IMG/VR virus record: IMGVR_UViG_3300032018_000004
Coordinates: 16,975 to 80,974 of that record
Length of the DNA stretch: 64,000 nucleotides
Reading direction: 5' to 3' (one strand)
Source: a virus
Shown: positions 764-45,315 of the stretch, in pieces
Layout of the letters: the number at the start of each line of letters is the position of its first letter
Numbering within the stretch: position 1 is the stretch's first letter
Made by a program: the position numbers and the translations under genes
The notes under the pieces: model-generated
What the model was told of the DNA's origin: nothing
What the model saw: the letters and a program-made list of their open reading frames with translations, nothing else
Databases searched by the model: none

Positions 764-790
764 TTATCGGAATATGATTAGAAAACTTTA
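764..790 (-). promoter_or_regulatory. sigma28/FliA-type promoter
   Basis: Minus strand TAAAGTTT-N11-TCCGATAA. Confidence 0.7.
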
Positions 791-1207
791 AGACTTTTGC
801 AAAATTATCTCATATTCTACTTGATATGTCCATTCCTTTACCACGTTGTCCCAAAATGGACCTAGCACGTTATATCTCTCTACTTTTATATCATTCCATC
901 CGGTTACTGTTATATCACAATTATCAAAATGAGATTTAAGGTATTCAAGAATTGTTCCAGCTTCCGAAGATGAATTTATGATATTAGAGTGAATGTTAAA
1001 AGCAACCTTGACAATTTCAAAGTTCGAAGCGTTTGTTGATTGGGCGTTTAGGTAATAATCTGGTTTGTCATGTATGAAGAAGTAGACAACGTATGGATAT
1101 ACAGCGGCATCTGCTGCTTTAACGAAGTAGAAACGATCAGCAATGGCTGTTTTAAAATTACTTGCAACTTGTGATCTTGAGTAGATTGCTGTAGAAAGCG
1201 CATTCAT
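788..1207 (-). CDS. putative tail completion/terminator protein
   Basis: Size, position after the gp10-like gene, and YPYVVY motif typical of this family. Confidence 0.6.
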   Translation of the reverse strand: MNALSTAIYSRSQVASNFKTAIADRFYFVKAADAAVYPYVVYFFIHDKPDYYLNAQSTNASNFEIVKVAFNIHSNIINSSSEAGTILEYLKSHFDNCDITVTGWNDIKVERYNVLGPFWDNVVKEWTYQVEYEIILQKS

Positions 1208-1665
1208 ATCTTATGTTTCTCGACTAGATTTAAGATTTCATCTTCTGCATCGTAAAGTGCTGGGCGAAGGAATGGGCGCTTATCTGGATTTGTACTTGTC
1301 CCTAATTCATGCCACAACCCTTTAGCTTCTTTGGTCCCTACATGCCCCACAGCCTCTTGCCCACTAGCAGGGGCATCAATCCCCTCAACATCGGATGCTG
1401 GACCCAACCCACCAGTTTTGCCGCTAGAGGTTGCATAGCTTATTGAATCCTTCAATTCTTCTGTGTCTGGGGCGGGAGGGGCAGGAGCTGCTGAAGCTTG
1501 GTGCATTCCACCACCAGGTCGCCTTGACCGATACATTTCACCCGTTCCCGCAACCATAGAATCTTTAGCTTTTTGAGTCACCAGTTCACAAGCATCCTCA
1601 ATGATAGCGTTTTCCGCCATTTGAACGGCACTTAAAACCGCTACATCATTCCAAACCGCTCTCAT
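1204..1665 (-). CDS. HK97 gp10-like neck/tail component
   Basis: HQASAAPAPPAPDTEELKDSI and ELGTS...RPFLRPAL motifs. Confidence 0.75.
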   Translation of the reverse strand: MRAVWNDVAVLSAVQMAENAIIEDACELVTQKAKDSMVAGTGEMYRSRRPGGGMHQASAAPAPPAPDTEELKDSISYATSSGKTGGLGPASDVEGIDAPASGQEAVGHVGTKEAKGLWHELGTSTNPDKRPFLRPALYDAEDEILNLVEKHKI

Positions 1666-2084
1666 TTAAGCAATTTCTCCCCACCCACAACTGCCCCTGC
1701 ACCTAAAGCTGCCGCCGCAATCCCAGGAGCTACTAAAGCTGGAGCCAAGGCAGGAATGAACGGGGCAAGCGCCGTGGTCACAGCAGCCTTTACAGCCCCG
1801 TCAATTGCTTCTTTCAAAGCTCCAGAAGCAATTGCTTGCCCCTCAAAAGCTTTAACCCCCTGTTCGTTTAAATCAACTGTATAGTCATTACCTCTCTTTT
1901 CAATATGAGCCACAAGAGAAGAAATCTCCTTCCCGTTATCTACTACCACCTCGCAACAACTCATTTCTCCAGTCGTATGGTTTGTAACAAATGGTTTAAC
2001 TGAATAATGAGCAGTACCAGCGTTTTGAAGAGAAGCGCACCCACAAAATGTAAAAAGAAAAACAACAACAAGTATTTTCTTCAT
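1662..2084 (-). CDS. putative lipoprotein
   Basis: MKK + hydrophobic stretch + FCGC lipobox; hydrophobic Ala-rich C-terminus. Confidence 0.55.
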   Translation of the reverse strand: MKKILVVVFLFTFCGCASLQNAGTAHYSVKPFVTNHTTGEMSCCEVVVDNGKEISSLVAHIEKRGNDYTVDLNEQGVKAFEGQAIASGALKEAIDGAVKAAVTTALAPFIPALAPALVAPGIAAAALGAGAVVGGEKLLK

Positions 2085-2401
2085 TCTACTTTCCTCAGTG
2101 TTATTTGTAAAAATCTGTTCTTTAAAGCAACATCTTCTGGTTCTGCAATAATTTCATAAAGCTTCGCACCATTTCTGACGCGATCTTTAGTTGTAATATT
2201 CAACCCATCTTTATATTTCATCATCAGAATGTAAGTAGTTGAAACCCTTGTAGAATCACCAATAAATTTCTCCCACCCTTCAACCCTAGTCAATGTTCCC
2301 CTGATATTTTCTACATCAGTCCACACAGTTACAAATCCGCCAGCGCCGTCACTAGCATCCGTTCTTCTCTGAATTTGAAAAATCGCTTTTGGACCTGCCA
2401 T
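2081..2401 (-). CDS. head closure protein (SPP1 gp16-like)
   Basis: IQRRT...DGAGG...W...ITTKDRV...YEI pattern and position. Confidence 0.8.
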   Translation of the reverse strand: MAGPKAIFQIQRRTDASDGAGGFVTVWTDVENIRGTLTRVEGWEKFIGDSTRVSTTYILMMKYKDGLNITTKDRVRNGAKLYEIIAEPEDVALKNRFLQITLRKVE

Positions 2402-3555
2402 TATACTTTAACCTTCCTATATTTAAAGAGAATTCTAATGACTTCTTTAGGAAGTGATTCTTCTTTATCAAATGATGCCCAAATATTGTGGGCGCGATAT
2501 TCTTTCAATCCAAAACTATCATCATCCCTCTTGTTATAAAAAAACTGAGCGAGAATCTTAACTGCAAGTTTCAAATCACTTGGCATATTCACTGAGGTGA
2601 ACCCAGCGGTGTAGTCAATATAAATATTTCCCGCTCCACAAGGCCATCCAGAATATTTTATCAACTGCCCTCTATCTAAATAGGTATCAAAATCAGAAAT
2701 TGGATTATCTGGTTTTTTTAAGTAGCACCAATTATTATCAATTGCACTTAACCCATATGTCTCAATCAATTCTGTGGACTTTACAGCCCCGTAGATGGAC
2801 GAATTAAGTTTTGCTTCCCACCCATTGCCAAGAAGGTTAATCGCAGCCACAATGGCGTTTAAGGTGGTGTTAGAGGTGAACGTGACAGTAGCATCGGCAA
2901 CACCATCAAACACAAGCCTCAACCCCGTAGGAAGAACAGAAACAGAAGCATATGAGTAAGTGTTTGTATTCTTTACACTAATCACATCTATCTCGCCAAT
3001 TGCAACCCTATCTATTGCCGTTACAGGGAAATTATCAATATTGAGAATTGGGCTTCCATTTCCATCATATTTTTCTTTCCTGTATGATGTTTCTTCAAAT
3101 GTCCTTCCACAATATTCTGAAGCAATCTGTTCTGCTGCATCCTTGATAGAAGAAACAACTTGACTAGGGTCTCCGGTTTCAATATCTGAAGTAATTGTCT
3201 GGGTGGCTGTTTTGCTTGCCGTGAATCCAACAGTTAGCCCAGCATCAGAAAGCGCATGATTATAGGCTATCGTTTTCCCAGTTCCGGCGTTTATGGAAAA
3301 TTTCATTGTTCCGGGGCTATACGTCACAGCAAAGATGATTGTCCCTGTTCCAGTTAGAGTGAGATTGGCATTCATTTTTGTTTGAATTTCTGTTGCTAAT
3401 CCAGTGCCATTATAATTCCCATCTGCTAAATTAATATCTACTGGTCCACCAGAAGACGAAGTTACATTTAGCGTGTTATTTGACGGAGTTATGATGAAAT
3501 ATGATGTCTCTATTCCCAAAAATTCAAGAACTTCATCAAGAGTGGTGATTGCCAT
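2401..3555 (-). CDS. head-tail connector (gp6/gp15-like) with large insertions
   Basis: ITTLDEVLEFLG N-terminus, AAEQIASEYCGRTF, YTAGF...PSDLKLAV, LPKEVIRILFKYR C-terminus. Confidence 0.7.
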   Translation of the reverse strand: MAITTLDEVLEFLGIETSYFIITPSNNTLNVTSSSGGPVDINLADGNYNGTGLATEIQTKMNANLTLTGTGTIIFAVTYSPGTMKFSINAGTGKTIAYNHALSDAGLTVGFTASKTATQTITSDIETGDPSQVVSSIKDAAEQIASEYCGRTFEETSYRKEKYDGNGSPILNIDNFPVTAIDRVAIGEIDVISVKNTNTYSYASVSVLPTGLRLVFDGVADATVTFTSNTTLNAIVAAINLLGNGWEAKLNSSIYGAVKSTELIETYGLSAIDNNWCYLKKPDNPISDFDTYLDRGQLIKYSGWPCGAGNIYIDYTAGFTSVNMPSDLKLAVKILAQFFYNKRDDDSFGLKEYRAHNIWASFDKEESLPKEVIRILFKYRKVKV

Positions 3556-3562
3556 TTCCTAA

Positions 3563-3931
3563 TTACCTCAAGTAGATGATTGTTTTGCCACCCTTGTTGA
3601 TGCCAGCGTTGGTTACAGACAAAGACAAGGTGCTGTTCACGACAGCCCCTACGCCATGAGTATAGTCTTTGATAGTCGGAACTGCGTTTGAAAGATTAGC
3701 CCCAAGCCCATGGAGAACATCAACTCCGTCACTATCATTCACCACAACATCATAAAGAGTTGTTGGCTGTGTACCACCACCATCTGGAAGCTGAATTACC
3801 CTCTGAACCATTCCAGTAAACGGGCTGGTTGTGGTTGATGTAGCATTACCTGATCCATCTGAAAGCCAAGTAAATGCAACTTTTTTAACAGAAAAAACAG
3901 TTAGTTCTGATTTTGTCACTGTGCCAGCCAT
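3563..3931 (-). CDS. hypothetical virion protein
   Basis: Thr/Gly/Val-rich ORF with GGAG RBS inside the structural operon. Confidence 0.6.
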   Translation of the reverse strand: MAGTVTKSELTVFSVKKVAFTWLSDGSGNATSTTTSPFTGMVQRVIQLPDGGGTQPTTLYDVVVNDSDGVDVLHGLGANLSNAVPTIKDYTHGVGAVVNSTLSLSVTNAGINKGGKTIIYLR

Positions 3932-3997
3932 ATATTTATCTCCTAATTTAATTTAACAAGCTATATAATTATATTTGGTTATGTTACCTAAATCCAT

Positions 3998-4801
3998 CTA
4001 ATTCTGTATTACCAATAAATGAAAAGCTATATCACACCTTGGGCTTCCGGTGATTACCGATGGAATAACCGAAGCCTTAATGAGGCTACCACCTGGACAT
4101 TTCTGAGAATGTATTTTTTTTTCACTGCTAGTATTTAGAGCAAGGTATATAATCGAATTAAAATGGTAAACTGAGCTGACAGTATGATCATCTGCAAATA
4201 CGGTTGCTCTTAGCCGTATATCCATATCTTGATTGATTGCCGATCCCCACCACCCAGTTAAATATGCAGAGTAGCCAGTTGGCACTTTGTATCTCCCAGA
4301 TAATGACCTATTTCCACCTGCTCGTATAAACTCAACCGTAGTTGCTTCTATAGCAACGCCATTCGTTGATGATATGGTTATGGCCCCTGCGCTAGTCTCT
4401 GCATTTCCAGTAAGACTCGCAACCTCCATCCACTGAATGAAGCTATAGCCTGCCCCGATGTTTACAGGCGTTGTGCCTGTTAAAGTTTTAGTTACTACTT
4501 GTTGATTGCCACTCACATCCAAGTACACAATTCGTACTGTTACAGCCCCGGCACCACCAGCCGCATCACTCGCTGATGTACTGACCAGATAATAAGTTGT
4601 GCCAGATAAGGGAGTATTCAACAGACTTTGCCCACCCACTAAATAATTACATATATCTTGAAACGTAGTGGCCGAATTAAAAGTAGTACGTCTCCCCAAA
4701 ATGGAAACCACATTGGCTATTTTCCCATTAAAATACCCTGTGTGTGAAATCTGAAAATCTTCACTGGCGATATCATTTCTTTCATTAAAAATGGTTGTCA
4801 T
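3998..4801 (-). CDS. hypothetical virion protein
   Basis: 267-aa beta-rich ORF in the structural operon. Confidence 0.6.
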   Translation of the reverse strand: MTTIFNERNDIASEDFQISHTGYFNGKIANVVSILGRRTTFNSATTFQDICNYLVGGQSLLNTPLSGTTYYLVSTSASDAAGGAGAVTVRIVYLDVSGNQQVVTKTLTGTTPVNIGAGYSFIQWMEVASLTGNAETSAGAITISSTNGVAIEATTVEFIRAGGNRSLSGRYKVPTGYSAYLTGWWGSAINQDMDIRLRATVFADDHTVSSVYHFNSIIYLALNTSSEKKIHSQKCPGGSLIKASVIPSVITGSPRCDIAFHLLVIQN

Positions 4802-5095
4802 TTACTGACTCAACCTTACAGTTGCAACGCCGCTAACAAATTCTCCCAACTTAGTGCCAATGCGATAGAAAACACCAGCTTCTGGCTCAAATCCATATTC
4901 TTGGGCATTGCTAACAAAAGTCTTGACATCAAACCAAGTGTCTCCAGAGTCGAAACTTCTTTGAACTGTCAAAGTGGCACTCCATGTTCCAGAAATAGAT
5001 ACATTAAAATGACCAGTCAATTCAACGCTATCGGTAAATAAATTATCAGAGTTGATGACTCTATCTATTTTCTTTTTTGGTCTATTCAGAGCCAT
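4802..5095 (-). CDS. hypothetical virion protein
   Basis: ISGTWSATLTVQRSFDSGDTWFDV motif; abuts the next gene. Confidence 0.6.
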   Translation of the reverse strand: MALNRPKKKIDRVINSDNLFTDSVELTGHFNVSISGTWSATLTVQRSFDSGDTWFDVKTFVSNAQEYGFEPEAGVFYRIGTKLGEFVSGVATVRLSQ

Positions 5096-5263
5096 GTTTA
5101 CCCTCTTGGATTATTGGCTGAAAAACGTCGTTCAAAACCTTACCGCTTAAATCAAAATAAACTTTCCTCCGACCTCTTTGAAAAAAAGACAAAAGAAAGT
5201 TTACAATTTTATCAATCATATTTTTCATATTATTCTATTCAACTATTATTTTTATATCCCTAT

Positions 5264-5293
5264 AAAGAAAAACAGGGAGGGTTTCCCCTCCCC
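5264..5293 (-). terminator. intrinsic terminator
   Basis: Minus strand GGGAGGG-GAAA-CCCTCCC followed by TGTTTTTCTTT. Confidence 0.75.
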
Positions 5294-5308
5294 ATCAAAT
5301 TCTAAAAA

Positions 5309-5746
5309 CTAAGCTTGTCTAGCCCAAATACCAACCATTTCCTGAATAATCCAACCATCAACGCCATCCGCAACAATCTTGATCATATCACCAAGTTTTG
5401 CAGTTGCCTTAGTATTGATAATTGCTTTATTATCAGCAGCGGTAATACCACAACCCTGGAACTTATCAATAGCAGCAGGAGCAACAGTCACTGCAACGGT
5501 ACCGTTTGCGCCAGCGTTTACAAAAGTATACGAAAGGCCAGCAGCGGTAGAGGGAAGAGTGATAGTCTTAGCATCAGTATCGATATATGTCCGATAGCCA
5601 CAATCGACAGCGGCTACGGTAGTGTCTGCACTGAGAGTCTGAACTTTTACAGCATCACTATCTTTTGAAACAGGTTTACCAGTTGCAACTACCTTGGTTA
5701 CAAGTTCACCAGCATTCCAAACACTTTTAACTTTAGTTACAGGCAT
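5309..5746 (-). CDS. putative capsid-associated/decoration protein
   Basis: TITLPSTAAGLSYTF...DGVDGW motif; GGAGG RBS; downstream of the major capsid gene. Confidence 0.55.
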   Translation of the reverse strand: MPVTKVKSVWNAGELVTKVVATGKPVSKDSDAVKVQTLSADTTVAAVDCGYRTYIDTDAKTITLPSTAAGLSYTFVNAGANGTVAVTVAPAAIDKFQGCGITAADNKAIINTKATAKLGDMIKIVADGVDGWIIQEMVGIWARQA

Positions 5747-5794
5747 AATTTATCCTCCATGCGGATTTAACCGCTTATAGGGAGATGGTTCCCC

Positions 5795-6067
5795 CTATTT
5801 AATTTTCTTCGGCCTTCTAGCTTTCTTAACAGCTTTCGCTGATTTGTCAACTGGTGCTGCCGAAATCATTTTGTTATTAGGCGGTTCATCAATTGATTTT
5901 GTTTTAACCTCTTCTCTGAATCCCACAAAGTCTCCCACGAATTCAACGGTCCCTCTTCCTTTCAGTTCGTTTGCTTTCACTTCAATTATAGAAAGAAGAG
6001 AACCTTCTGGATTGCCCATCCATTCAGATAGAAATTTAACTTTTACAAATTTATTCTGCCTAATCAT
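5795..6067 (-). CDS. hypothetical protein downstream of capsid
   Basis: VKVKFL...PPNNKMI with basic tail, typical of small post-capsid genes. Confidence 0.6.
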   Translation of the reverse strand: MIRQNKFVKVKFLSEWMGNPEGSLLSIIEVKANELKGRGTVEFVGDFVGFREEVKTKSIDEPPNNKMISAAPVDKSAKAVKKARRPKKIK

Positions 6068-6086
6068 ATTTTACCTTTTAAATTTT

Positions 6087-6116
6087 TAAAACTAGGGCTA
6101 CTCAGACGGTAGCCCC
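6087..6116 (-). terminator. hairpin, probable terminator
   Basis: Minus strand GGGCTAC-CGTCTGA-GTAGCCC then TAGTTTT. Confidence 0.55.
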
Positions 6117-6146
6117 ATCTCCTTCAAGTCTTGCTTGATGAGTTAA

Positions 6147-6632
6147 TTAAACAATTGCAGTTGGGGAAACTTCCTGAACAACACGGCCCTTGGAAAGCAG
6201 ACAGGTGATCGATCCACTAACCGGACTATTTACAACTTCAGTTGCTTTTACCCGAACATATTTATTAGTACCGCTAAGAGAAGCAGAATTCACTTCTACG
6301 GCGTATACCTGATCAGTCCCGGCAGTGGTGGTAAAGCCAGACGCGGTTGCAGTCTGCATATCACCCCAAGTGTCACCAGTAGTGCATACCCAATAAACAA
6401 AGGGAATTGCAGTTGCAGTGCCAGGAACAACGGTATCGCAAGACTCTACGGTAATGGTAGCGGTGCCAGTTGCACCAGCGGCCTTCTGAATGATAAAAGT
6501 TGCGTTCTCATACTTACCAAGATTGATAATGTCCGTTGCTGGAGTACCATTGAACAAGTCGTCATAAGCAGCCGCACTTGCAGCAGGAAGTGCATTTACC
6601 ACATGAACATTCTGAAAAAATCTTCCACCCAT
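6147..6632 (-). CDS. putative capsid decoration/cement protein
   Basis: Immediately after the major capsid gene; ITVESCD...KYVRV pattern; GGAGG RBS. Confidence 0.6.
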   Translation of the reverse strand: MGGRFFQNVHVVNALPAASAAAYDDLFNGTPATDIINLGKYENATFIIQKAAGATGTATITVESCDTVVPGTATAIPFVYWVCTTGDTWGDMQTATASGFTTTAGTDQVYAVEVNSASLSGTNKYVRVKATEVVNSPVSGSITCLLSKGRVVQEVSPTAIV

Positions 6633-6690
6633 AATTTATTCCTCCATATATTTTATAAAATTCTTTTTATTATTTACCCCAAATCAAACA

Positions 6691-6742
6691 GTGCGGAAAT
6701 CAGCCGGGAGAGTTGCTGACTTATCGGTTCCCCTATCCGCAC
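6691..6742 (-). ncRNA. structured RNA motif, copy 1 (three-way junction)
   Basis: GTGCGGATAGG-GGAA-CCGATAAGTCAGC-loop-GCTGATTTCCGCAC; a paralogous copy lies at 12370-12416. Confidence 0.55.
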
Positions 6743-6753
6743 CTAACTAAAAA

Positions 6754-8001
6754 CTATCGTGTTGCCAACGCCACAAACGGAGAAAGCGTATCGCTGGTAG
6801 CTTCAGGAGGTACCAATGCCTGTGGCATCCAACTTTGACCCGCAACATAAAATGCAAATCTAAATGCTTGCTGGTCATTTTCAAATTTAATATGCATAGA
6901 GGTATCAAAACGCATACCTTCACTACCAGCGAGCATACCAAGCAAATACTGCTTCATGTTGACAAGCATGATGTCGCCAACAGTACCAAGAGACTTAGCA
7001 TGATGGCTGAACACAATTGGCAATCCAAACAAGGTCGCGAAAGGAACGCCAGCCGCGCCATTTGCAGGCATAAAGACAGGAACTCCGCCTGTGCCGACAG
7101 CGAGGCTCATCGATGCAAGCTGGGGAAGGGTATTCGGATTGACAACCCAAACAGCATTAGAAGGGTCAAGACAACGAGAATACATCTTGATTACATTTTC
7201 CCAAAGAATGGTAGTTGAAGCTTGACCAGTTTCAGCAGTTACGGAAACTAGAGCAGGAGCATTGAGTACACCCTGAGGCTGACCTGCCCCAGTGCCCTTT
7301 AGAATTACCCGATTCATTTCATAGTTGAAGCCATCAACAAAACCCTCACGAAGAATGTTCTCCATAGACATCGGAGAAAACCGGAGAATTTCATCAGAAG
7401 CGTAGGCAAGGCCAGTTACTTTATGAAGGGTAAGGTTGATATAGCCAAGCTTGACACTCTTGGGAGTAAGAGCTTCTTCCTCGTCAGTCCAATTCCAAGC
7501 TACATTGCCATAAACCAAATTCCCGGATTTGTCGAAGCCATTGACATAGGGGATTTTAACAACATTGCTCTGCATGGGAATCTGAGTACAACGAGCCATC
7601 AGTTCATTCTTCTCACGGGAAGCAACAAGCAATTCCTGACGAAATTCTTCAGGAACTACATAGCCGCCAGATTCACCATCAGAAACATTCTGAGACGGGG
7701 TGCCAGCAGCCTTGGTACAAACAGACTCCCAATCGCCCAACTCTTTAGAAACCTTGCGAAAGCCACTTTGTGCAGCCTTTGCAACATCAAGGGCAAAGTG
7801 AGAGAAAGACTTGAATCCAGCCTTCTTATCCACCAATTTCTCGCCAACAACAATCCGCTTCTCTACTTCACCTACAGCTTCCTTAATCTTTGCATCAATC
7901 TCAGCAGCCATAGCCTCACGATCTTCAGCCATCACGCCCTTAACCGCCTCAACAGTGGTGTCCTTTACAAGGGCTTCAAATTCACTTTTTTCCATTGACA
8001 T
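6754..8001 (-). CDS. major capsid protein (HK97 fold)
   Basis: GGYVVPEEF, SDEILRFS, ILKGTGAGQPQGVL, TLFGLPI, SPFVALATR. Confidence 0.95.
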   Translation of the reverse strand: MSMEKSEFEALVKDTTVEAVKGVMAEDREAMAAEIDAKIKEAVGEVEKRIVVGEKLVDKKAGFKSFSHFALDVAKAAQSGFRKVSKELGDWESVCTKAAGTPSQNVSDGESGGYVVPEEFRQELLVASREKNELMARCTQIPMQSNVVKIPYVNGFDKSGNLVYGNVAWNWTDEEEALTPKSVKLGYINLTLHKVTGLAYASDEILRFSPMSMENILREGFVDGFNYEMNRVILKGTGAGQPQGVLNAPALVSVTAETGQASTTILWENVIKMYSRCLDPSNAVWVVNPNTLPQLASMSLAVGTGGVPVFMPANGAAGVPFATLFGLPIVFSHHAKSLGTVGDIMLVNMKQYLLGMLAGSEGMRFDTSMHIKFENDQQAFRFAFYVAGQSWMPQALVPPEATSDTLSPFVALATR

Positions 8002-8152
8002 ATTTTATTCCTCCAGATTTTTTGTTTTTATTTCAATCACTTACGGCCTAATATCTCTTAAATATCTCTAGCCAGATTGAATTTTTTATTGACATCCCCG
8101 CATATTTTATGTAATGTTAAATTGGGGATATATGCCTTTTGTTTTATTTATA

Positions 8153-9559
8153 TTAAAAAATGATGCCTTTTGCCTTTTTGATTCTTTCTTCTACGAGATC
8201 ACTAATTGATTGAGTTTTAGATTTTGCAGAGAGAACTGATTCGATTACCATCTTTTTAACATCTTCTGGTGTAAAATCCAGATCAATCGTTTGTTTTTTA
8301 ATTTCAAAATCAATTACATCTTTTTCTTTCACTTTCTCTGTATATACCTTATCGGCATTTTCTTCAGGAAACTTTAATGTTTTTTCAATCTTTTCGTCAA
8401 CATACGCACGAATTGATTTAATTTCTTCAAGAATTTCTTGGAATTTATCGATATCACTTTTGGTGGCAGTTTCTGTTTCTTTAGAATCGATTATCTTTTC
8501 TTCTGTATTATCTTCCTGATTATCAATAACCATGGTTTCTTTTGTTTCTTCCTGAACGTCCAATGATTTCTTCGTTGGCTTGTCGCAACCTTCATATTGG
8601 GGGCAATTTTCTCCATCACAACTACCGTCTTCCCCATCACAAGGCATAGCATCCTTTTCAGATTTTTCTTCCGCTGCATCTTCTACAACTTCAGTCATTT
8701 CTGTTTTTTCTTCGGTTGATTCTGTCTTTTCTTCGGATGATTCGTCAGAAAAGCTTCCCCAATCTTTCTCCATTGCTTTCCGCAATTTACTCTCTTCGTC
8801 TTTAAGGGCGAGAGAAATTTTTTCTTCCATGGCATCTCTCATCTTGGACATATTGCCTTCGCATTTTTGGGAAACGCTGAGGCTCCCATCCTCATTTTTG
8901 ACCAATGGCATATAGCCCTCGATATCAATATGACCAATTACTTTTGCTTTTTCTTCGGTGGGTTCGGAAGTAAGCTCGATGTATTCTTTTGAGTCTTTTA
9001 GTTTTTCAACCATTGATTTTACTTCAGCAGATTTGATTTCCCCCCTCTCTAGGGAGGCGACCATTGATTTAGCCCCGTTAATGATGGTCGCGGAGGGATT
9101 CGCTGGTATTGTTACACATGATAATTCGAGAAGTTCACACTCTTCATATACAGTACAAGGGACTTTCCCATTTTTATCAACATATTTCTGGCTCTTTTCA
9201 TTGTCATATATTCTAACTGGTCGAAATCCAACTGAAAAACTTGACATGAAACCATTTTTGTAAAGAGAATAAATCTCATTTCCCGCTTCCGTATCTGCGA
9301 ACTTGATTTTGAATTTCAAACCATTAGAGTCAGTCTTTTGCCAAATAGATTTCGCAACTGGGAGTGACCAGTAATCATGATTTACCAAAATTACTGGATT
9401 CATTCTATAATTCTTCAATCCTTCTTCCGTCCAAGCAGAAGCAAGAATCATTTCATTATGCCTATCGACCTCATTGGTAGATGCATAGCAAACAATTGAG
9501 TTTTCATCGTCCAACATTTCGCTTTTTTGTGCATACGCGAACATTTTATTTTCAGCCAT
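8153..9559 (-). CDS. HK97-family prohead protease with acidic scaffold-like extension
   Basis: NPVILVNHD, SFSVGF, LLELSCVTIPANP. Confidence 0.92.
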   Translation of the reverse strand: MAENKMFAYAQKSEMLDDENSIVCYASTNEVDRHNEMILASAWTEEGLKNYRMNPVILVNHDYWSLPVAKSIWQKTDSNGLKFKIKFADTEAGNEIYSLYKNGFMSSFSVGFRPVRIYDNEKSQKYVDKNGKVPCTVYEECELLELSCVTIPANPSATIINGAKSMVASLERGEIKSAEVKSMVEKLKDSKEYIELTSEPTEEKAKVIGHIDIEGYMPLVKNEDGSLSVSQKCEGNMSKMRDAMEEKISLALKDEESKLRKAMEKDWGSFSDESSEEKTESTEEKTEMTEVVEDAAEEKSEKDAMPCDGEDGSCDGENCPQYEGCDKPTKKSLDVQEETKETMVIDNQEDNTEEKIIDSKETETATKSDIDKFQEILEEIKSIRAYVDEKIEKTLKFPEENADKVYTEKVKEKDVIDFEIKKQTIDLDFTPEDVKKMVIESVLSAKSKTQSISDLVEERIKKAKGIIF

Positions 9560-9580
9560 CTAAATTCCTCCTATCTTACA

Positions 9581-9799
9581 TTAAAATAATTGCATTGAAT
9601 CAAATATGTAGTTTGATCTAATTTGTTTTATTACATTTCCTTGTTCAATGCCACAGCAATATTCTTCTCCGTTTTGACATACAGATTTTATTTGTTTGTC
9701 TTTATAAATAGGGCAAAAATCATGATTTACAGGCTCAAATTGCCCATGTGTGTTCATCTTTATTCTTACTAGGTGGTAAATTTGGGTTTTATTTGCCAT
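9581..9799 (-). CDS. hypothetical protein
   Basis: Coupled ORF within the operon. Confidence 0.5.
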   Translation of the reverse strand: MANKTQIYHLVRIKMNTHGQFEPVNHDFCPIYKDKQIKSVCQNGEEYCCGIEQGNVIKQIRSNYIFDSMQLF

Positions 9800-10107
9800 T
9801 AACTTCTTCTACATAGAAAATTCATCAAACGTCTTGAGATAGATATGATATTATCAAAATATCTCCAATCCCCTTTTAATTCTGGGACCACTAAATTTTC
9901 ATCTTCTTTAATTTCTACTAATTTAAATTTCTTAAATAGTTTTACCAATTCTCCATCTTTAATTTCTGGAGTGTCTGGATAGTATTCACATGAAATAGTC
10001 AACAAGCTATCAACTTCGCATTCCATATTGAATTTCTTACAACGCTTTGGTAACCCAAGAATTTTAATTAAATCAGTTACTTCTTTGCTATGCCCATTAA
10101 AAGCCAT
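9799..10107 (-). CDS. hypothetical protein
   Basis: Coupled ORF within the operon. Confidence 0.55.
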   Translation of the reverse strand: MAFNGHSKEVTDLIKILGLPKRCKKFNMECEVDSLLTISCEYYPDTPEIKDGELVKLFKKFKLVEIKEDENLVVPELKGDWRYFDNIISISRRLMNFLCRRS

Positions 10108-10108
10108 T

Positions 10109-10885: not shown

Positions 10886-11337
10886 GTCTTTCTCTCCCTA
10901 TTAAGATTTAAATTGCTGAATCCAACCAATTGCTCTCTTGCAATTCTACTCGCATCATTCTTCCTGTAATTATTCCAAGCAACCCACCCTCCAATTCTTA
11001 AAGCCCTATAAATTACAGCTCTCTGCCATTTAGATACACCAAGGACATCCATTGCTTCTAACAGTAATTGGTCACTTGCTTTCTGCGACCCCAAAAGATT
11101 CGTTTTATAGAGATGATCATGTAGTACAGCGGCCTTGCCATATTGCCCCCAAGGAGAGAGGATGTTTTGGACTATTCCTGGTATGCTTGCGCCATCAGTG
11201 ATGAACCCAATCGGCACCTCTATAATCTGTTTAGAGAGCATTCCCCCGACACGGTAGCGGAAATGCTCTCTAAGATAGAAGGTTTCAGATTCTCCGTCAA
11301 CTGGGGTGAGGAGGAGTTGGGTTGTAAAACTAGACAT
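10879..11337 (-). CDS. DUF1353-family protein
   Basis: VPIGFITDGASIP...AAVLHDHLY motif. Confidence 0.85.
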   Translation of the reverse strand: MSSFTTQLLLTPVDGESETFYLREHFRYRVGGMLSKQIIEVPIGFITDGASIPGIVQNILSPWGQYGKAAVLHDHLYKTNLLGSQKASDQLLLEAMDVLGVSKWQRAVIYRALRIGGWVAWNNYRKNDASRIAREQLVGFSNLNLNRERKTC

Positions 11338-11340
11338 TAA

Positions 11341-12333: not shown

Positions 12334-12350
12334 TATATACCTCTGTAGTA

Positions 12351-12416
12351 TATTCTGATTAATTAAATGGTGGAAATTGGTTCAGAATACCAACTTGTCG
12401 GACGCCTCCTATCCAC
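12351..12416 (-). ncRNA. structured RNA motif, copy 2, in the HNH gene leader
   Basis: GTGGATAGG-AGGCGT-CCGACAAGTTGGT-ATTCTGA-ACCAATTTCCAC; the loop is complementary to downstream TCAGAATA. Confidence 0.55.
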
Positions 12417-12437
12417 GCATTGCTCTAATTATAATCA

Positions 12438-14260: not shown

Positions 14261-15997
14261 TTATATTAGCCTTACCCTTGGTGTCGCTTGCTCATAGAAA
14301 CACATTCTTAAAGCAGCAAATTTATCGTCACTATTCCCATTTATTTTCTTCTTTACTGTCTTTTTATCGCTTACTTTAATTTTTCCAGAATTTTGATCTT
14401 CTCCATAGTCATATGCCATCATCTGCTCTTTCAATTCTGGATCATCTGGAATCATTGCGGAAGGCTCTTTCTTTAACCATTCGGCAACTTTCCACGCAAG
14501 CTCGTCGCGAATCAGACCAAATCTGCCTATATCACACTTCTTATCGCTTGGAGCAGAAACATAAATCTTTTTTACATTAAAGTGTTGACGAATCATTTCT
14601 TTATGACAAATTGGGCATTTAAAGAAATCTTCGTCTGTATATGTTTTATCAACACCTTCGCATTCAGAGTTACAGCATTTCCAGTAAAACATTCTGGAAA
14701 TTTTTGGAGGGATAGCAGCGCCAATTCCGTCGCTTTCTACATTGATCTGTTGACCGTCTAATTCAGCAGATATCTTTGCTATTTTGTCGGCAGATAAATC
14801 AACATCAATCCCACGCCACATGTCGAAGCCAGCGACATAGTTGCCATACTTCTTAGCTACACAACTATTGTCAGTTCCTTCATCTGCTATATCACAACCA
14901 AGAATTGGCTTGATTCCCTTAATTGCATCTTTCCCGTATTGAGCGGTATATAATTTCCATCTTGTTACCGCATTATCAATATCGGTTTCGGAGAATAGAG
15001 AATTTGCAGTGCTGGTGGGATACAGGCCCAACACTTTATACGAAAATGCAGAATTAATTATCCTGCGCCATCCACCTTCAAGCGGTGGATACTCTTTGCC
15101 AGATGGAGATATGGCAATACAACCAACTAAAAATTCCGGTACTTCAAAACAAGATGAATCTGGCTCTTCATCTTCCTTTAGAGGAATTGTCCAATCGTAA
15201 ATACGCTCTACTGTTTTATCTCTCGAAACAGCCCCAGGAATTACATTTTCTCCGGTCATGACATTCGGATGAGCGAACGCGCTCAGGATTATTACATTTG
15301 CCCTTTGGTTCTTTACTTGATCATATATCCATCCAGAGCGTCTTTTAGGGTTATAAAGATTTAACTGCCTACTCCCATCACCTGATAAACAACCATCTTC
15401 CCCTCTAAATACCTCATTCGGGATGGCATCGCATTCATCATTCACAAAAAGTAAAAATGGGGCGTGAGAACCTGAGAATTTAGACTCTCTCTCCTCTTCG
15501 CTGCCGGAAGTAGGAACAGTCTTACCAAGAATAAAATGTTTGTTACTTCCTTCTGATTCTTCACCTTCTTTGTAACTTACATCATCTGTTATTTTAAGAG
15601 TGAGAATTTTATCTGTCTTGAAAAGTTTTCTGTTGGCAAGAACCATATCATTGATTTCGCTAAACAGTTTGCTTTTCAAATTCTCCTCTGGTGGTGCAGC
15701 AGTAGCAATTACCTGTGACTGTGGGAAGCACTTGTACCACCATGCAGAAACAGCGGCAGCGATGTACGTCTTCCCAACTCCCGTGGCTGATTGGCAAACA
15801 GTTACTTTGTTGTCCCTGACCGACTCTGCAATGATGACAAGATCAGGAGGGATATTTGCAATCCCTAATTCCTCTCTAAAGAATCCAACGGGATCGCTCT
15901 GGTATTGTGTTAGATCATTTCCAAGAGAGTTTTTAATCTCATCTTCGCCAAATGCCTTAATCAAGCTATCTAAGGCGGCATCGTCAAATTCAGTCAT
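14261..15997 (-). CDS. terL: terminase large subunit
   Basis: Walker A SATGVGKT, Walker B FVNDEC, LYNP, nuclease GCDIADEGTD and SDDKFAA. Confidence 0.92.
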   Translation of the reverse strand: MTEFDDAALDSLIKAFGEDEIKNSLGNDLTQYQSDPVGFFREELGIANIPPDLVIIAESVRDNKVTVCQSATGVGKTYIAAAVSAWWYKCFPQSQVIATAAPPEENLKSKLFSEINDMVLANRKLFKTDKILTLKITDDVSYKEGEESEGSNKHFILGKTVPTSGSEEERESKFSGSHAPFLLFVNDECDAIPNEVFRGEDGCLSGDGSRQLNLYNPKRRSGWIYDQVKNQRANVIILSAFAHPNVMTGENVIPGAVSRDKTVERIYDWTIPLKEDEEPDSSCFEVPEFLVGCIAISPSGKEYPPLEGGWRRIINSAFSYKVLGLYPTSTANSLFSETDIDNAVTRWKLYTAQYGKDAIKGIKPILGCDIADEGTDNSCVAKKYGNYVAGFDMWRGIDVDLSADKIAKISAELDGQQINVESDGIGAAIPPKISRMFYWKCCNSECEGVDKTYTDEDFFKCPICHKEMIRQHFNVKKIYVSAPSDKKCDIGRFGLIRDELAWKVAEWLKKEPSAMIPDDPELKEQMMAYDYGEDQNSGKIKVSDKKTVKKKINGNSDDKFAALRMCFYEQATPRVRLI

Positions 15998-16213: not shown

Positions 16214-16401
16214 TATTTATTCTCTTTAATTTCTGAAGAATCATCACGAAGAAAAGTAGGAATTACATTCTCCATCTTAGCAAAATGCAAGAAATTATTA
16301 TCCGTGGTATGAAATGTCATTATTCCCTTTTTCCACATCTCCCAATCTTGTTCAACTTCAAGATATAGAATCCTATCAGTTCCTTTTTCAAAAAATCTCA
16401 T
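16213..16401 (-). CDS. hypothetical protein
   Basis: ATGA overlap with terS. Confidence 0.5.
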   Translation of the reverse strand: MRFFEKGTDRILYLEVEQDWEMWKKGIMTFHTTDNNFLHFAKMENVIPTFLRDDSSEIKENK

Positions 16402-17096
16402 TTATTTCCACCTATGCGCCTAGCTAACGAGACCCGAATGTTGTCTTGTGTTTCTTGGGGGAGCATTGCAAGAAACTGCTTAAAATCGACTGGCAATGTT
16501 CTCTCTGCATCTTTATCAAATAACCCTAAATTCTTGGAAAGAGCATCAAGGCCATAATTCTTCTGGAGCAATCGATAACTTTTTGGATTCCCCTTTCGGT
16601 CATATACAATATCTTGGATTGCTGCTGCTTGTTCGCGTGTCAATTTCTGTATTGGCTTTAGAACACCTTCTTCATCATAATAATCTTGGAGATTGCTATA
16701 GGCAACCGAAGCATATTCAGTTAAGACACGCTCTTGAGTGATTTGAAGCTTCTTGGTGATCTTCTTCTGCCTATTCTCAATTTCCCGTTTCACACGCGGG
16801 ATTGTGAGAAGCCTTCGTCCAAACACAGCGGCGTTCCAAATAGGCCATCCAGCCTCTTGCGCTGCCTTTTCCTCGTTGTAGTGAATCACATATTCATTAC
16901 AGAATCGCTCAACCTTGAAGGGGAGTTCATCCTTGTCTGTGATGCCATCTAATTCTTTGACTGCTGCAATATATTCTTCAGGTTCGTATGGTTGAGTTTG
17001 AATTATCTCTAATTCAGTGTCAATATATTCTTGTTTTACAGCAGTTTTTTCTTTTTTAGAGACTCTTTTTGGTTTTTCAATCATTAAATTCTTCAA
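16398..17096 (-). CDS. terS: terminase small subunit
   Basis: RFCNEY...AAQEAG...RLLTIPRV...ITQERVLTEYASVAYSN...LSKNLGLF. Confidence 0.88.
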   Translation of the reverse strand: MKNLMIEKPKRVSKKEKTAVKQEYIDTELEIIQTQPYEPEEYIAAVKELDGITDKDELPFKVERFCNEYVIHYNEEKAAQEAGWPIWNAAVFGRRLLTIPRVKREIENRQKKITKKLQITQERVLTEYASVAYSNLQDYYDEEGVLKPIQKLTREQAAAIQDIVYDRKGNPKSYRLLQKNYGLDALSKNLGLFDKDAERTLPVDFKQFLAMLPQETQDNIRVSLARRIGGNK

Positions 17097-17300: not shown

Positions 17301-17327
17301 TTATCGGCATTTTACTTAAAAAACTTT
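17301..17327 (-). promoter_or_regulatory. sigma28/FliA-type promoter upstream of the terminase/head operon
   Basis: Perfect TAAAGTTT-N11-GCCGATAA. Confidence 0.8.
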
Positions 17328-17360
17328 AATAATTTGTTGTATTTATGTTATATGAGCTTT

Positions 17361-18158: not shown

Positions 18159-18186
18159 TTATCGGAATATTTCATTAAAAACTTTA
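18159..18186 (-). promoter_or_regulatory. sigma28/FliA-type promoter (leftward member of a divergent pair)
   Basis: TAAAGTTT-N12-TCCGATAA. Confidence 0.65.
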
Positions 18187-18237: not shown

Positions 18238-18264
18238 TTAAGTTTTCGGTAGAAATGCCGATAA
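18238..18264 (+). promoter_or_regulatory. sigma28/FliA-type promoter (rightward member of a divergent pair)
   Basis: TTAAGTTT-N11-GCCGATAA. Confidence 0.7.
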
Positions 18265-22024: not shown

Positions 22025-22053
22025 TTGACATAATCCAGAACATTTCCTATAAT
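22025..22053 (+). promoter_or_regulatory. sigma70 promoter
   Basis: Perfect TTGACA-N17-TATAAT. Confidence 0.75.
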
Positions 22054-36873: not shown

Positions 36874-37824
36874 ATGGTAGAAGATTACGAATTCCATACT
36901 GAAATTAATGAATTGAAAAGCAGAATCGAGAGTCTTGAGTATAAAGTCGAAGATTTGCAGAGAGATATCTTAAACAGGCAAGAAGAACCAATAGCAGATT
37001 TAACACAACCAACACCAGATTTAACACAACTAACACCTAAATTGAATAGAAAGATAAAACCACTTGCCACAAAGAAACCTAAACCCGTTGCCAAAGTTCC
37101 AGAAGATGTTCAAAAGATAATCAATTTCTGGAACAGTCTTGGATTGCGGCAGCACTCTAACCCAAATGCCAAAATTTATCTTGAAATTGTTAAGATGCTA
37201 AAAAAGTTGATGAATGCAAAATTCTTTGAATCAACTTCGCCATATGCAAAATATGCCGGAACTGAATTCACACCAAAACAAATTATGGATTCAATTCACC
37301 AATTCTCATTTGCTGCTCTTAATTTTAATTACAAACCACAAGGATCATTTAAGGAAACTCTAAAGAAGACAAGCCTCCAGGATTTTTTATATAATAATAG
37401 GATTGACAAATCCTTCTTTATTGAGTACCATGAAAATGAAGCTAAGTTATTGGCTGAATCAGATAAGATGGTTGATGATCCCGATCCAGAACAAACCATG
37501 ATTCTGAAAGATGTTTGGGTGAAACAAATTTTGAAGGATATTGCTCCCAATTCATGGTCAACATTCCAGGAGCGTGATTTCAGGAAATGCTCAAAAGAAA
37601 TTGGTGTTTGGTTCGGTAATAATGGAAAGAAGATCGGGAATTATTGGAACGTGAATGGCGATACGGTCATGCACAAGAGGAAGAGGGCAGAACTTTTGAT
37701 GAGTTGCTTGTTGAGTTCAGTGAATGAGGATGTTACAAAATTAACCGTTTCTCATTTAGCATATCCAAGCACATTTAATGAGAAATTTCCGAAGTACTTG
37801 AATCAACAGGGGGTTTTGGAATGA
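36874..37824 (+). CDS. hypothetical protein, possibly replication-associated
   Basis: 316 aa; coiled coil, DLTQxTP x2, IINFWN. Confidence 0.7.
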   Translation: MVEDYEFHTEINELKSRIESLEYKVEDLQRDILNRQEEPIADLTQPTPDLTQLTPKLNRKIKPLATKKPKPVAKVPEDVQKIINFWNSLGLRQHSNPNAKIYLEIVKMLKKLMNAKFFESTSPYAKYAGTEFTPKQIMDSIHQFSFAALNFNYKPQGSFKETLKKTSLQDFLYNNRIDKSFFIEYHENEAKLLAESDKMVDDPDPEQTMILKDVWVKQILKDIAPNSWSTFQERDFRKCSKEIGVWFGNNGKKIGNYWNVNGDTVMHKRKRAELLMSCLLSSVNEDVTKLTVSHLAYPSTFNEKFPKYLNQQGVLE

Positions 37825-39272: not shown

Positions 39273-40391
39273 TTATCGAAATAATTCACTTTCTTTGTTA
39301 GAGGAACTATAAATGCCTCTATTGTGGATATTAATAGCGCCGTTTGACTTATCAACTACGCCACATGAAGAACAGGTTTGGCTTGTATATGCTGGATCAA
39401 CGGAGAGAAGATAGAAACCTTCTTCTTCAGACCGTAATGCCAGTTTAGCCAGAACCTGCTTGTAAGACCAATATTGAAGTCTGTTTTTAAATTTAGTATT
39501 TAGTTTCGATTTGTATTTTACATTCTTAAGGTCTTCAACCACTACGAGATTATACGACCCAAGGTCGATGTTGTTTACAATTTGGTTAGTGAGATTTTTC
39601 TTGTGGATTAGTAGCTGTTTATAGTTCTTAGAGCCTCGTTTTTTGTCGGCAAGTTTTGCATAAATCTGTTTTAATTCCTCACCATAGTGAAAGCCATTTG
39701 AATCAGAAATTAACTTATTATAGCCGCAATCCAACCCGATTGATTTGCCATGTTGTTTTACTTGTGCTTGTTCTTTCTCATAGAAAAATGTGACGTAGAA
39801 ATTTCCATTGATTTTAGATAATTGAATAGTATTTTTTCGAGTCCAATCTTTAAATTTCAAACTATTCTTGTGCTGTTTAATTGGGACATTAATTGTTTGG
39901 TATAGGCGCTTATCTTTCTTATACGGAGTAGTTATCCTAATAAATGAGTCAAATGAACTGCTTTCCTTAATGTTCCATAAATGATATCCTAAATTTATTG
40001 AAATAGTTTTTACGTCAATTTTAATACGTTTCAAATAATTAATGTTTAGTTCTGAATATTTCTTATTTAAAAACGATTGATGGATATCCTTTATCTTACA
40101 CTTGGTATAAAGTTTCTGATATCGCTTGAATGTTTTGTTTTTTGTGTATTTTAGATTTGAGCGGATTATTTCAGAAGCTGTTTTATAGGATAACTCTTTC
40201 CACGAACTATATTCAAAAACATCATTATGGAGATCTTTGCATGACATTAACTTCTTGAGTGGCAACTCGCCTTTGACGATGAGATCGATATACAAAATTA
40301 CACACTGCTTAAAGTCCTCATGAATCTTTTCGAGGAGGGCAAGTTTGCGTTTATTTGCGAATTTAAGAGTATGTTTAGATGATCTTATCAT
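39273..40391 (-). mobile_element. tnpB: solo IS200/IS605-type TnpB with truncated zinc finger/RuvC-III
   Basis: RuvC-I GLDCG, RuvC-II VVEDL, VDPAYTSQTCSSCG, then directly NGAINI; no transposase nearby. Confidence 0.85.
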
Positions 40392-40430: not shown

Positions 40431-40458
40431 TTATCGGCATAATTAACTAAAAACTTTA
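40431..40458 (-). promoter_or_regulatory. sigma28/FliA-type promoter upstream of tnpB
   Basis: TAAAGTTT-N12-GCCGATAA, 39 nt before the ATG. Confidence 0.7.
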
Positions 40459-44127: not shown

Positions 44128-44353
44128 AAATGGAATACAAAATCACGCCAATTGCTTATTCAGTTCATAATGCAAAAGAAAATCCTATTTATAGTGAAAC
44201 AGCAATTCATGTTAAGATGGAAGATGAAGGGGCTGGGCCATTTATTGTGATAACTCAAGATGGGAGTGAAGAAAAAGAAATTCGTGTTGAGGTTGAGGAA
44301 TTGGAGAAGATTCTTGAAGCTTCTAGGATGCTGTGTGGAGAGGGGAAATGATC

Positions 44354-44639
44354 ATGGAGATGAAAAAACCAAAGCCCTGCCCGTTCTGTAATGCCATACC
44401 TCACACTTTTGAAGGTATGGGTGGAACATGTGTACTGTTGGAATGAAGATGGTAGTTGCGGTCATCGTGGTATCATTATGACGTTGGGGGAATGGAACAC
44501 CCGCACCCAACCAAAATATAAATGGAAAGACCAATATGAATGGATGAATGCCCACACCAAAATGTATAGAGGCGATAACGCGTCTGATTGTATGATGAAT
44601 GCATTTAACGCTGGACGAGAATTAAAGGAGAATAAATGA
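44354..44639 (+). pseudogene. Lar-like zinc-finger gene with a frameshift
   Basis: MEMKKPKPCPFC in one frame continues as HVYC...C...WNTR in another, with the shift near 44425. Confidence 0.5.
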
Positions 44640-45259
44640 AAATTTTTGTAGGCAAATATTGTTCGTGGTGGGGAGCGTATCAGATTGCCGATCTCTTGCA
44701 GCATTTAGGAGTATCAGAAGATAGATGCTATAAAATTGGGGAATGGCTTTCCAACACCAAACTCCAGACTTTTCTTGAATGGATTGATTCTAAAAAGAAG
44801 AGAGCAATAAATATTCATATTCACGACTACGACATTTGGAGCGCAGATCATACCCTTTCCATTATCATATTGCCAATGCTCAAAATGATTCAAGAGGACA
44901 AGCATGGAGCACCATTTGTGGATGATGAGGACGTTCCAGATGAATTGAAGTCAACCAATGCCCCACCTAAAAATAATGAATGGGATGTAGATTTGTTATG
45001 GTTCCAACGCTGGGACTGGGTGCTGGACGAGATGATTTTTGCGATGTCCTCAATTTTAGATGATTCGTGGGAGGAAAAATTTCATTCTGGTAACATGGAT
45101 TTAGTTTGGGAAAAGTGCGAGGGTTCTGATTTGTCTGAAATGAAGGATGGGCCAAATAATACCCATGTCTTTGATGCGGTAGGGTATAAAATTTATGCAG
45201 ACAGAATTCAAAATGGGTGTAGGCTTTTGGGACGATATTTTCGCTCACTTTGGACCTGA
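44636..45259 (+). CDS. phage hypothetical protein
   Basis: DIWSADHTL...HGAP...RWDWVLDEMIFA...YFRSLW. Confidence 0.8.
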   Translation: MKIFVGKYCSWWGAYQIADLLQHLGVSEDRCYKIGEWLSNTKLQTFLEWIDSKKKRAINIHIHDYDIWSADHTLSIIILPMLKMIQEDKHGAPFVDDEDVPDELKSTNAPPKNNEWDVDLLWFQRWDWVLDEMIFAMSSILDDSWEEKFHSGNMDLVWEKCEGSDLSEMKDGPNNTHVFDAVGYKIYADRIQNGCRLLGRYFRSLWT

Positions 45260-45287
45260 TTTATTTCACTACTACACTTAAAATCGT

Positions 45288-45315
45288 TAAAGTTTTGATA
45301 CATTTATGCCGATAA
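45288..45315 (+). promoter_or_regulatory. sigma28/FliA-type promoter upstream of the HTH gene and helicase
   Basis: TAAAGTTT-N12-GCCGATAA. Confidence 0.7.

Follow-up and report, generated by a model that had tools for sequence, protein, structure and literature searches.

To time their genes, lytic phages are known to rely on sigma factors or polymerases that they encode, on activators, or on proteins that modify the sigma-70 holoenzyme of the host; the phage-encoded sigma factors include gp28 and gp33/34 of SPO1, gp55 of T4 and gp36 of phiEco32. In bacteria, the class 3 flagellar and chemotaxis promoters are read by sigma-28-type factors, such as FliA of E. coli and Salmonella and SigD of Bacillus. 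Here we describe eight sigma-28-type promoter boxes in a phage from sediment metagenomes, the linear 80,974-bp IMG/VR virus record IMGVR_UViG_3300032018_000004 (G+C 0.376; labelled G000 below). Bases 16975–80974 of the record, a stretch of 64,000 nucleotides (nt), are called the window, and coordinates refer to the window unless the record is named. The boxes show the same two octamers and the same N11/N12 spacing as the class 3 promoters of FliA, but they head virion, replication, sugar-modification and selfish-nuclease genes, and they are more uniform than host promoters, with extra invariant bases (A-T before the G/T-CCGATAA block and G after it). We lean towards the reading that they are predicted sigma-28-class middle/late promoters read by a FliA/SigD-type sigma of the host, alongside consensus sigma-70 promoters for early genes.

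Phage-borne DNA on the host FliA/sigma-28 programme has precedents. The gene flxA of the Qin prophage belongs to the host FliA regulon, according to the accessible part of PMC1935009, and so does the prophage flagellin gene fliC_P of Enterobacter prophages, according to the accessible part of bioRxiv 10.1101/2023.11.30.569447. These are single accessory (moron) genes of lysogens, whereas the boxes of the present phage, which looks lytic, head core lytic units in eight places. Regulons run by phage sigma factors (SPO1, T4, phiEco32) likewise have a host sigma-70-type early class followed by a distinct replication/virion class; they differ in that no sigma gene was detected in G000 or its three relatives, and in that the late class in G000 equals the consensus of a host alternative sigma and not a phage-specific sequence. 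For phiEco32 and 7-11, middle and late regulons are run by a phage-encoded sigma, as stated in the accessible part of PMC8948821. A literature search, whose coverage left out most subscription journals, returned no paper on core units of lytic phages under sigma-28-type promoters. The promoter kind itself is well known.

The boxes and the units that they head

Eight boxes of the form TAAAGTTT-N11/12-(G/T)CCGATAA-G are present in the record, seven of them in the window:

764..790, minus strand: sigma-28-type box, TAAAGTTT-N11-TCCGATAA, then G; overlaps the stop codon of a 139-amino-acid (aa) open reading frame (ORF), 788–1207
8349..8376, minus strand: sigma-28-type box, exact; within the 3' end of the prohead protease gene; the capsid gene follows 347 nt farther on
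17301..17328, minus strand: sigma-28-type box, N12; heads the leftward virion operon
18159..18186, minus strand: sigma-28-type box, N12; faces a 114-aa Cys-rich ORF, 17724–18068
18238..18264, plus strand: sigma-28-type box with one mismatch, TTAAGTTT-N11-GCCGATAA, then G; divergent from the 18159–18186 box
40431..40458, minus strand: sigma-28-type box, N12; 39 nt before the start of a TnpB-like gene
45288..45315, plus strand: sigma-28-type box, N12; then GGTATATGAAGGAGG, with ATG 21 nt past the box
record 14962–14989, minus strand, outside the window: sigma-28-type box internal to a gene for a GT2 glycosyltransferase; the tail-tube gene lies downstream

Six of the window boxes are exact and one carries TTAAGTTT. 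Over the whole record, the -35 octamer is TAAAGTTT at seven of the eight sites, the -10 block CCGATAA is found at all eight and is preceded by G in five and by T in three, and the spacer is N11 at two sites and N12 at six. The published consensus of E. coli sigma-28 is TAAAGTTT-n11-GCCGATAA (accessible part of PMC2859248). Four of the eight sites agree with all 16 specified positions and each of the eight with 15 or 16; at the other four, either the -10 octamer begins with T instead of G (three sites) or the -35 octamer is TTAAGTTT (one site). Moreover, a G directly follows CCGATAA at 7/7 window sites and 8/8 record sites, as an earlier sequence-only reading of the window had noticed for the copies that it listed. 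That reading had listed six boxes, all of which are real and lie on the strands given; the one taken as 17301–17327(-) with N11 proved to be one base longer with N12, the exact window copy at 8349–8376(-) had been missed, and the eighth lies beyond the window. It had also described every box as placed in or overlapping an intergenic gap and facing a downstream gene or RNA. All eight do point at the next gene on their own strand, and six are in or overlap gaps; the other two are intragenic.

A scan of the record and of shuffled controls, which had been proposed as a check, bore out the motif: TAAAGTTT-N10..13-CCGATAA has six exact matches in the window against none in each of 100 dinucleotide-preserving shuffles, and CCGATAAG occurs nine times there, whereas the shuffles average 0.95 occurrences and never exceed 4. 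With a tolerance of three mismatches, the two fixed-spacer patterns matched 11 and 10 times (expected, 4.3 and 3.8), so that there are few if any extra weak sites. One weaker box-like site, which is not counted here, lies at 31549–31575(+) with three mismatches, 10 nt before the ATG of the ORF 31586–31990.

The genes that stand behind the boxes, or contain them, include the following:

6754..8001, minus strand: major capsid protein gene, HK97-type Phage_capsid (Pfam, E 4.5e-43)
8153..9559, minus strand: prohead protease gene (Peptidase_S78), whose C-terminal extension holds the internal box
14261..15997, minus strand: large terminase gene (TerL), from tblastn to phage terminase-region proteins, 55–63% identical to the clade relatives
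16398..17096, minus strand: small terminase gene (terS), Pfam Terminase_2, E 4.4e-22; in the first late unit
39273..40391, minus strand: TnpB-like gene (Cas12f1-like_TNB), 372 aa, with a 22-aa in-frame gap against the orthologue in the relative G005
45337..45543, plus strand: gene for a 68-aa winged helix-turn-helix (wHTH) protein, Pfam HTH_Crp_2, MarR-like, weak; PadR/MarR-like PDB matches, also weak
45599..47125, plus strand: DnaB-like replicative helicase gene, from tblastn to phage DnaB-like helicases

We propose that the boxes would form a second promoter class, beside consensus sigma-70-type promoters that would serve the block of small early genes. The units so headed would be (1) a 59-aa ORF with terS, TerL and the portal gene; (2) the major capsid gene, whose box is internal to the protease gene; (3) the sugar module of radical-SAM, methyltransferase and glycosyltransferase genes; (4) the remainder of this module together with the tail tube, from the box within the GT2 gene; (5) the Cys-rich 114-aa ORF; (6) an untranslated stretch followed by a pair of HNH genes; (7) the TnpB-like gene; and (8) the wHTH gene together with the genes for the DnaB-like helicase and an HNH-like protein. 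At the wHTH, TnpB and terS units, a Shine-Dalgarno site and a start codon follow 15–45 nt past the box, both in G000 and in the relatives.

The operon behind the 17301–17328 box runs in the order 59-aa acidic ORF (17077–17256), terS, TerL, portal and onward, and its first ORF begins 44 nt past the box. Behind the 764–790 box stand a different 59-aa ORF, the radical SAM, methyltransferase and glycosyltransferase genes and the tail tube gene. Here the start codon of the 59-aa ORF lies only 6–9 nt past the box (+8 in the relative G001), so that the mRNA may be leaderless; in the relative G002, the orthologous unit has a normal leader with a Shine-Dalgarno site. The box at 45288–45315 is followed by the wHTH, helicase and HNH-like genes, and both box and leader have an orthologue in G001 (141137-), which has a separate box before its helicase gene (116156-).

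The box at 18159–18186 is followed in tandem by a sigma-70-type promoter, TTGACA-N17-TATAGT at 18123–18095, which likewise faces the 114-aa ORF. Boxes at matching positions, with TTGACA after each, are found in G001 (23864+), where the box precedes a homologue of the 114-aa ORF, and in G002 (94563-), where it was placed by position only, beside terS, no homologue of the ORF being detected in G002. Behind the divergent box at 18238–18264 there are about 480 nt with no credible ORF and then the HNH genes 18744–19355 and 19333–19737. The sequence-only reading had put a structured RNA in this place, which is not supported: 18265–18740(+) has no Rfam match at E<=1, folds no better than shuffles (z-score -0.54) and has no counterpart by blastn in G001, G002 or G005.

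For the box at 40431–40458, the orthologue is found in G005 (58733-). The TnpB-like gene itself merits a separate remark. Its G005 orthologue (L198 17483–18667(-)) has 394 aa and is 72% identical; the gap in the G000 protein lies between the first CxxC and the NGAINI motif, so the second CxxC and the D-A-D of RuvC-III are lost. Furthermore, its stop codon is 1 nt from the convergent stop of the endolysin gene, which leaves no free room for a guide-RNA scaffold. Judged from these residues, the sigma-28-type box may stand before a TnpB gene that is dead or has become TldR-like.

Conservation in related phages

The same exact pattern occurs in multiple copies in other IMG/VR contigs. Three of these are relatives of the phage, G001 (144.5 kb), G002 (113 kb) and G005 (74.7 kb); G003 is a near-identical part of G002, and G004 is unrelated. 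Among the four phages G000, G001, G002 and G005, the TerL proteins are 55–63% identical, the capsid proteins 46–79% and the virion genes 46–79%. They carry 8, 12, 6 and 4 boxes in G000, G001, G002 and G005, respectively, which gives 30 clade sites. A box precedes terS in 4/4 phages and the capsid gene in 4/4. It is found inside the GT2 gene in all three comparable phages and after the 139-aa ORF in three of three, one of them with TAAAGTCT; the orthologues of the 764–790 box are G001 48043+ and G002 71771-, the latter being the one with the variant octamer. In addition, boxes stand before the wHTH gene and before the TnpB-like gene in two of two comparable phages each, and before the Cys-rich ORF in both phages with a detected homologue (G000 and G001). 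The sequence around the orthologous boxes has diverged between the phages.

At the 30 clade sites, TAAAGTTT is exact in 26, and the spacer is N11 at 11 and N12 at 19. Since 26 of the 30 sites were found by searching with the pattern itself, the specificity of the boxes is judged only from the positions that the pattern leaves unfixed and from an unbiased scan. At the unfixed positions there is A at -3 in 27/30, T at -2 in 29/30 and, after CCGATAA, G at +1 in 30/30, followed by G at +2 in 20/30. Capsid loci in IMG/VR with at least 73% identity and available upstream sequence have a box in nine of nine cases, 476–905 nt upstream, many of them being near-identical strains of the same phage species. 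Six more distant capsid loci (31–46%) have no convincing box, and a phage-like contig (L289) that carries the radical-SAM/glycosyltransferase module at 37–46% identity has none. Thus the box class is a trait of the clade.

These data bear on another explanation, in which the boxes are not promoters at all and would instead be a repeated element for packaging, replication or recombination, the end of a mobile element, or partly the product of chance. Two copies do lie within coding sequence and several are near HNH or TnpB genes. The complete lack of matches in the 100 shuffles and the common orientation of all eight boxes with their genes tell against it, as do the Shine-Dalgarno sites and start codons at promoter distances, the terS and capsid boxes kept in all four phages with or without mobile genes nearby, and the intragenic copies, whose place before highly expressed virion genes is likewise kept. 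We regard this explanation as very improbable. The match to the published sigma-28 consensus (PMC2859248, accessible part), the promoter-like distances and the orthologous positions in three relatives uphold the promoter class proposed in the sequence-only reading, and at the level of sequence they support the view that these are genuine bipartite promoters of the sigma-28 (FliA/SigD) class.

Two observations on more distant contigs may be added. In L289, which is binned in a Cloacimonadota metagenome-assembled genome (MAG), radical SAM, DXD glycosyltransferase and GT2 genes adjoin a terS-like gene, and the module therefore seems to travel among phages beyond the clade. In six unrelated viral contigs (L028, L093, L098, L108, L114 and L119), the box is interleaved with a sigma-70-type promoter, TTGACA lying within the spacer and TATACT or TATAAT just past CCGATAAG, which suggests dual sigma-28/sigma-70 promoters there.

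Candidate readers of the boxes

The families Sigma70_r2, Sigma70_r4 and Sigma70_r4_2 (PF04542, PF04545, PF08281) have no matches in the six frames of G000 at E<=10, and thus the absence of a sigma gene, first stated for the window, holds for the whole 81-kb record. FliA_WhiG (TIGR02479) gave no match at E<=10 in any of five records (G000, G001, G002, G005 and the unrelated G004); in a bacterial MAG, by contrast, this model recognised 12 sigma genes. In the five other box-bearing contigs (G001–G005), Sigma70_r2 was found in none, a negative limited in the relatives by contig completeness of 58–83% (this and the other completeness figures are CheckV estimates). Sigma70_r4 had just two sub-threshold helix-turn-helix (HTH) matches in the relatives, with 14.5 and 15.9 bits. 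The long open frames that contain them, of 412 and 439 aa, lie next to the homologues, in G001 and G005, of the HNH-like paralogues 11341–12333 and 47129–47956. Pfam and/or PHROGs searches with 54 ORFs of G000 gave no match to a sigma family, and a FlgM-like gene was found in none of the four records. T7-type RNA_pol (PF00940) likewise had no match in 4/4 records, a weak negative as the control genomes were silent too; the motif is bipartite with a variable spacer, unlike a contiguous T7-like promoter of about 20 nt. From these searches, a recognisable phage sigma in the clade is unlikely.

One ORF of 316 aa (36874–37824) was considered as a sigma candidate owing to a weak 'sigma-70 family' row in the structural search (TM score 0.27/0.38). 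Longer members of its family carry HTH_36 and resemble replisome organisers, so it is read as a replication organiser. For a 207-aa ORF (phrog_11543) and the 114-aa Cys-rich ORF, PDB and Pfam searches gave no match, and homologues are few.

Since neither a sigma factor nor an RNA polymerase is detectable in the phage or its relatives, the most likely reader would be the core RNA polymerase of the host carrying its flagellar sigma-28, and because the boxes equal the sigma-28 consensus, a FliA/SigD-type sigma of the host would also be the simplest one. We infer that the boxes fire, that transcription would start about 7–9 nt past CCGATAA, that host sigma-28 would read them and that phage expression would be coupled to motility. 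An early phage protein that frees sigma-28 from FlgM, or one that disables sigma-70, could serve as the timing switch. By analogy with the contacts of sigma-70 to the discriminator, the G or GG past the -10 box might stabilise open complexes.

The only lead to a host is that G001 has also been deposited as contig 1 of a Melioribacteraceae MAG, in which 10 of 11 exact boxes sit in the phage contig. This MAG has flagellin genes, with sigma-28-like promoters before them, and FliA-like matches that fall short of the curated cut-off, and flagellin genes are found in 27 of 31 Melioribacteraceae genomes. Upstream of 30 flagellin genes of this family there are 20 credible boxes, 111–171 nt before the gene. 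Moreover, 301 genomes of the class Ignavibacteria contain, when the phage contig is set aside, 68 exact TAAAG/CCGATAA boxes, compared with 23 matches to the reversed pattern used as control; the ORFs downstream of such boxes, 10 of which were tested, include four flagellins, two CheW and one FlaG, and the base past CCGATAA in these host boxes is mostly T or A. By these gene assignments, the exact box marks flagellar genes in the candidate host class.

Other searches for a host gave little. TerL and capsid scans of genome contigs returned only G001 and a 31% match in Anaeromyxobacter, and a search with the radical-SAM gene returned only L289. BLAST of window positions 1–20000 against 166 Melioribacteraceae genomes gave tRNA-like matches of 73–81% and short low-complexity matches, and none of the five places examined lay within a CRISPR-like repeat array. 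The extended box was found over genome contigs in 24 stretches across many phyla, three of them in the phage contig, and no host taxon emerged.

Several points weigh against reading by the host. The lead to Melioribacteraceae comes from binning, which is weak evidence, and no RNA runs containing window positions 8320–18300 were listed, although two sediment runs contain 99% of the words sampled from the stretch. The flagellin boxes of this family, TAAACTTTT-N12-nCGATAAT, are similar and not identical to the phage boxes: at position 5 of the -35 block, 19 of 20 have C, and just past CGATAA, 17 of 20 have T; the phage boxes have G in both places. In an unbiased scan of the four phages, none of the 61 TAAA...CGATA matches shows the host-type combination and 32 are of the phage type. 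The phage boxes also carry invariants beyond the sigma-28 consensus (A at -3, T at -2, G at +1), and such bases could point to a more specific reader. It would also be hard to explain how a host sigma restrained by FlgM gives a timed programme that includes replication genes. Furthermore, as the record is about 86% complete, a sigma gene may sit in the missing part, and a very divergent sigma would escape Pfam. Reading by host sigma-28 is therefore plausible on the sequences compared, yet the phage boxes appear to be a distinct, tighter variant.

Some of the same points favour a phage-encoded sigma, either in the unassembled part of the genome or too divergent for Pfam and NCBIfam, that would read these sigma-28-class promoters as a self-contained middle/late regulon. 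The incomplete records (G000 at about 86%, the relatives at 58–83%) leave room for it, the phage has an early class of consensus sigma-70 promoters, as is usual for phages that encode a late sigma, and the invariant positions are absent from the host promoters, whose flagellin variant the phages avoid. The gene would, however, have to be missing from each of the independently broken contigs G000, G001, G002, G003 and G005, which have no Sigma70_r2, and would have to evade FliA_WhiG as well; a sigma that escapes Pfam is unlikely to retain the -35 and -10 specificity of FliA base for base, and the best structural lead, the 316-aa ORF, belongs to the replisome-organiser-like HTH_36 family. The suggestion of the sequence-only reading that a sigma-28-like factor might be encoded elsewhere is accordingly weakened by the lack of a Sigma70 or FliA_WhiG match in the other 17 kb and in the relatives, and keeps some room only through the missing part of the record; we think it unlikely.

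Were the reader from outside the sigma-70 family, the likeness to sigma-28 promoters would be convergent. Candidates would be an unrecognised phage polymerase and a phage transcription factor or RNA-polymerase modifier working with the polymerase of the host, such as the wHTH protein or the Cys-rich 114-aa protein. The conserved flanks of the -10 block (A/T at -3/-2, G at +1 and G at +2 in 20/30), which exceed the sigma-28 consensus, fit such a factor, and so does the position of the wHTH gene and the Cys-rich ORF directly behind two boxes in G000 and G001. Convergence on 15–16 of 16 consensus positions at eight sites with correct spacing is very unlikely, however, and typical HTH operators are palindromic or repeated, which the two blocks are not; a search whose control was silent gave no RNA polymerase domain, and outside the tail region there is no large unexplained ORF. 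We hold this alternative to be improbable.

If reading by host sigma-28 is true, placing core replication and virion units under an alternative sigma of the host would be a different timing strategy, burst production would be tied to host motility, and the outcome of infection in sediments would depend on the state of the host, with resistance arising through loss of fliA or changes in flgM. More tentatively, and with some doubt, we consider that the clade may have handed its middle/late programme to host sigma-28 so that virion production passes a motility checkpoint. In that case sigma-28 freed on export of FlgM would gate virion production, the 'super-consensus' A-T-N-CCGATAA-G-G would outcompete the host class 3 promoters for scarce holoenzyme, and the phages might enter via the flagellum, which would ensure active sigma-28 at infection. 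In practical terms, the boxes mark out the transcription units of a phage that cannot be cultured, and they point to a host that may be flagellated.

Sigma-70-type promoters and gene layout

Four sigma-70-type promoters of the window match all 12 consensus positions:

22025..22053, plus strand: consensus sigma-70-type promoter, TTGACA-N17-TATAAT, 12/12; early region
23525–23497, minus strand: sigma-70-type promoter, 12/12
34468–34496, plus strand: sigma-70-type promoter, 12/12
12455–12428, minus strand: sigma-70-type promoter, 12/12

Sites with 11/12 include 29396(+), 30886(+) and 18123(-). Altogether 10 sites have at least 11/12, which is not clearly above the shuffles (mean 4.5, maximum 11), and only the four 12/12 sites stand out from them. 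In the proposed model, the 12/12 promoters at 22025(+), 23525(-) and 34468(+) and the three 11/12 sites named here would serve small early genes.

By sequence, no cultured phage is close to the record. Megablast of 5 kb against 50,697 phage records gave zero matches, and in protein searches with TerL and the helicase all relatives were below 60% identity (top rows 31.7% and 23.5%). The leftward arm also carries tRNA-Thr and the portal region and, past the window edge, the radical-SAM/methyltransferase/glycosyltransferase module, the tail tube and tail genes. The rightward arm has many small ORFs and then replication and nucleotide/RNA-repair genes, with an SF2 helicase, a primase, the DnaB-like helicase, a split DnaE, ligases and a CCA-adding enzyme. 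The RNA-repair set consists of a CCA-adding/poly(A) polymerase-family enzyme with an HD domain at 50783–52156(+), an RlaP-family nucleotidyltransferase at 52141–53031(+) and an RNA ligase at 53093–54154(+). At 56205–59509(+) the DnaE-type polymerase is split, its PHP domain being a separate 318-aa ORF, and in the 679-aa ORF the NTPase and finger domains of pol III alpha are fused to a domain of the uracil-DNA-glycosylase family.

Between 22900 and 26500 there are no credible ORFs, the translations being merely hydrophobic or of low complexity; the G+C rises to 0.39–0.41, consensus sigma-70 promoters flank the region, and no Rfam family reaches its gathering score there. An Imm5-like protein encoded at 28134–28865(+) has a long alanine/tyrosine low-complexity tract at about residues 165–225. 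Finally, the record has at least six HNH/endonuclease-VII-like nuclease genes, which are probably selfish, among them 11341–12333(-), 47129–47956(+), 55049–56203(+), 18744–19737(+) and record 12296–13213(-); the first two are the paralogues named above, and one HNH-type nuclease gene within the virion operon has its own perfect TTGACA-N16-TATAAT at 12455–12428(-).

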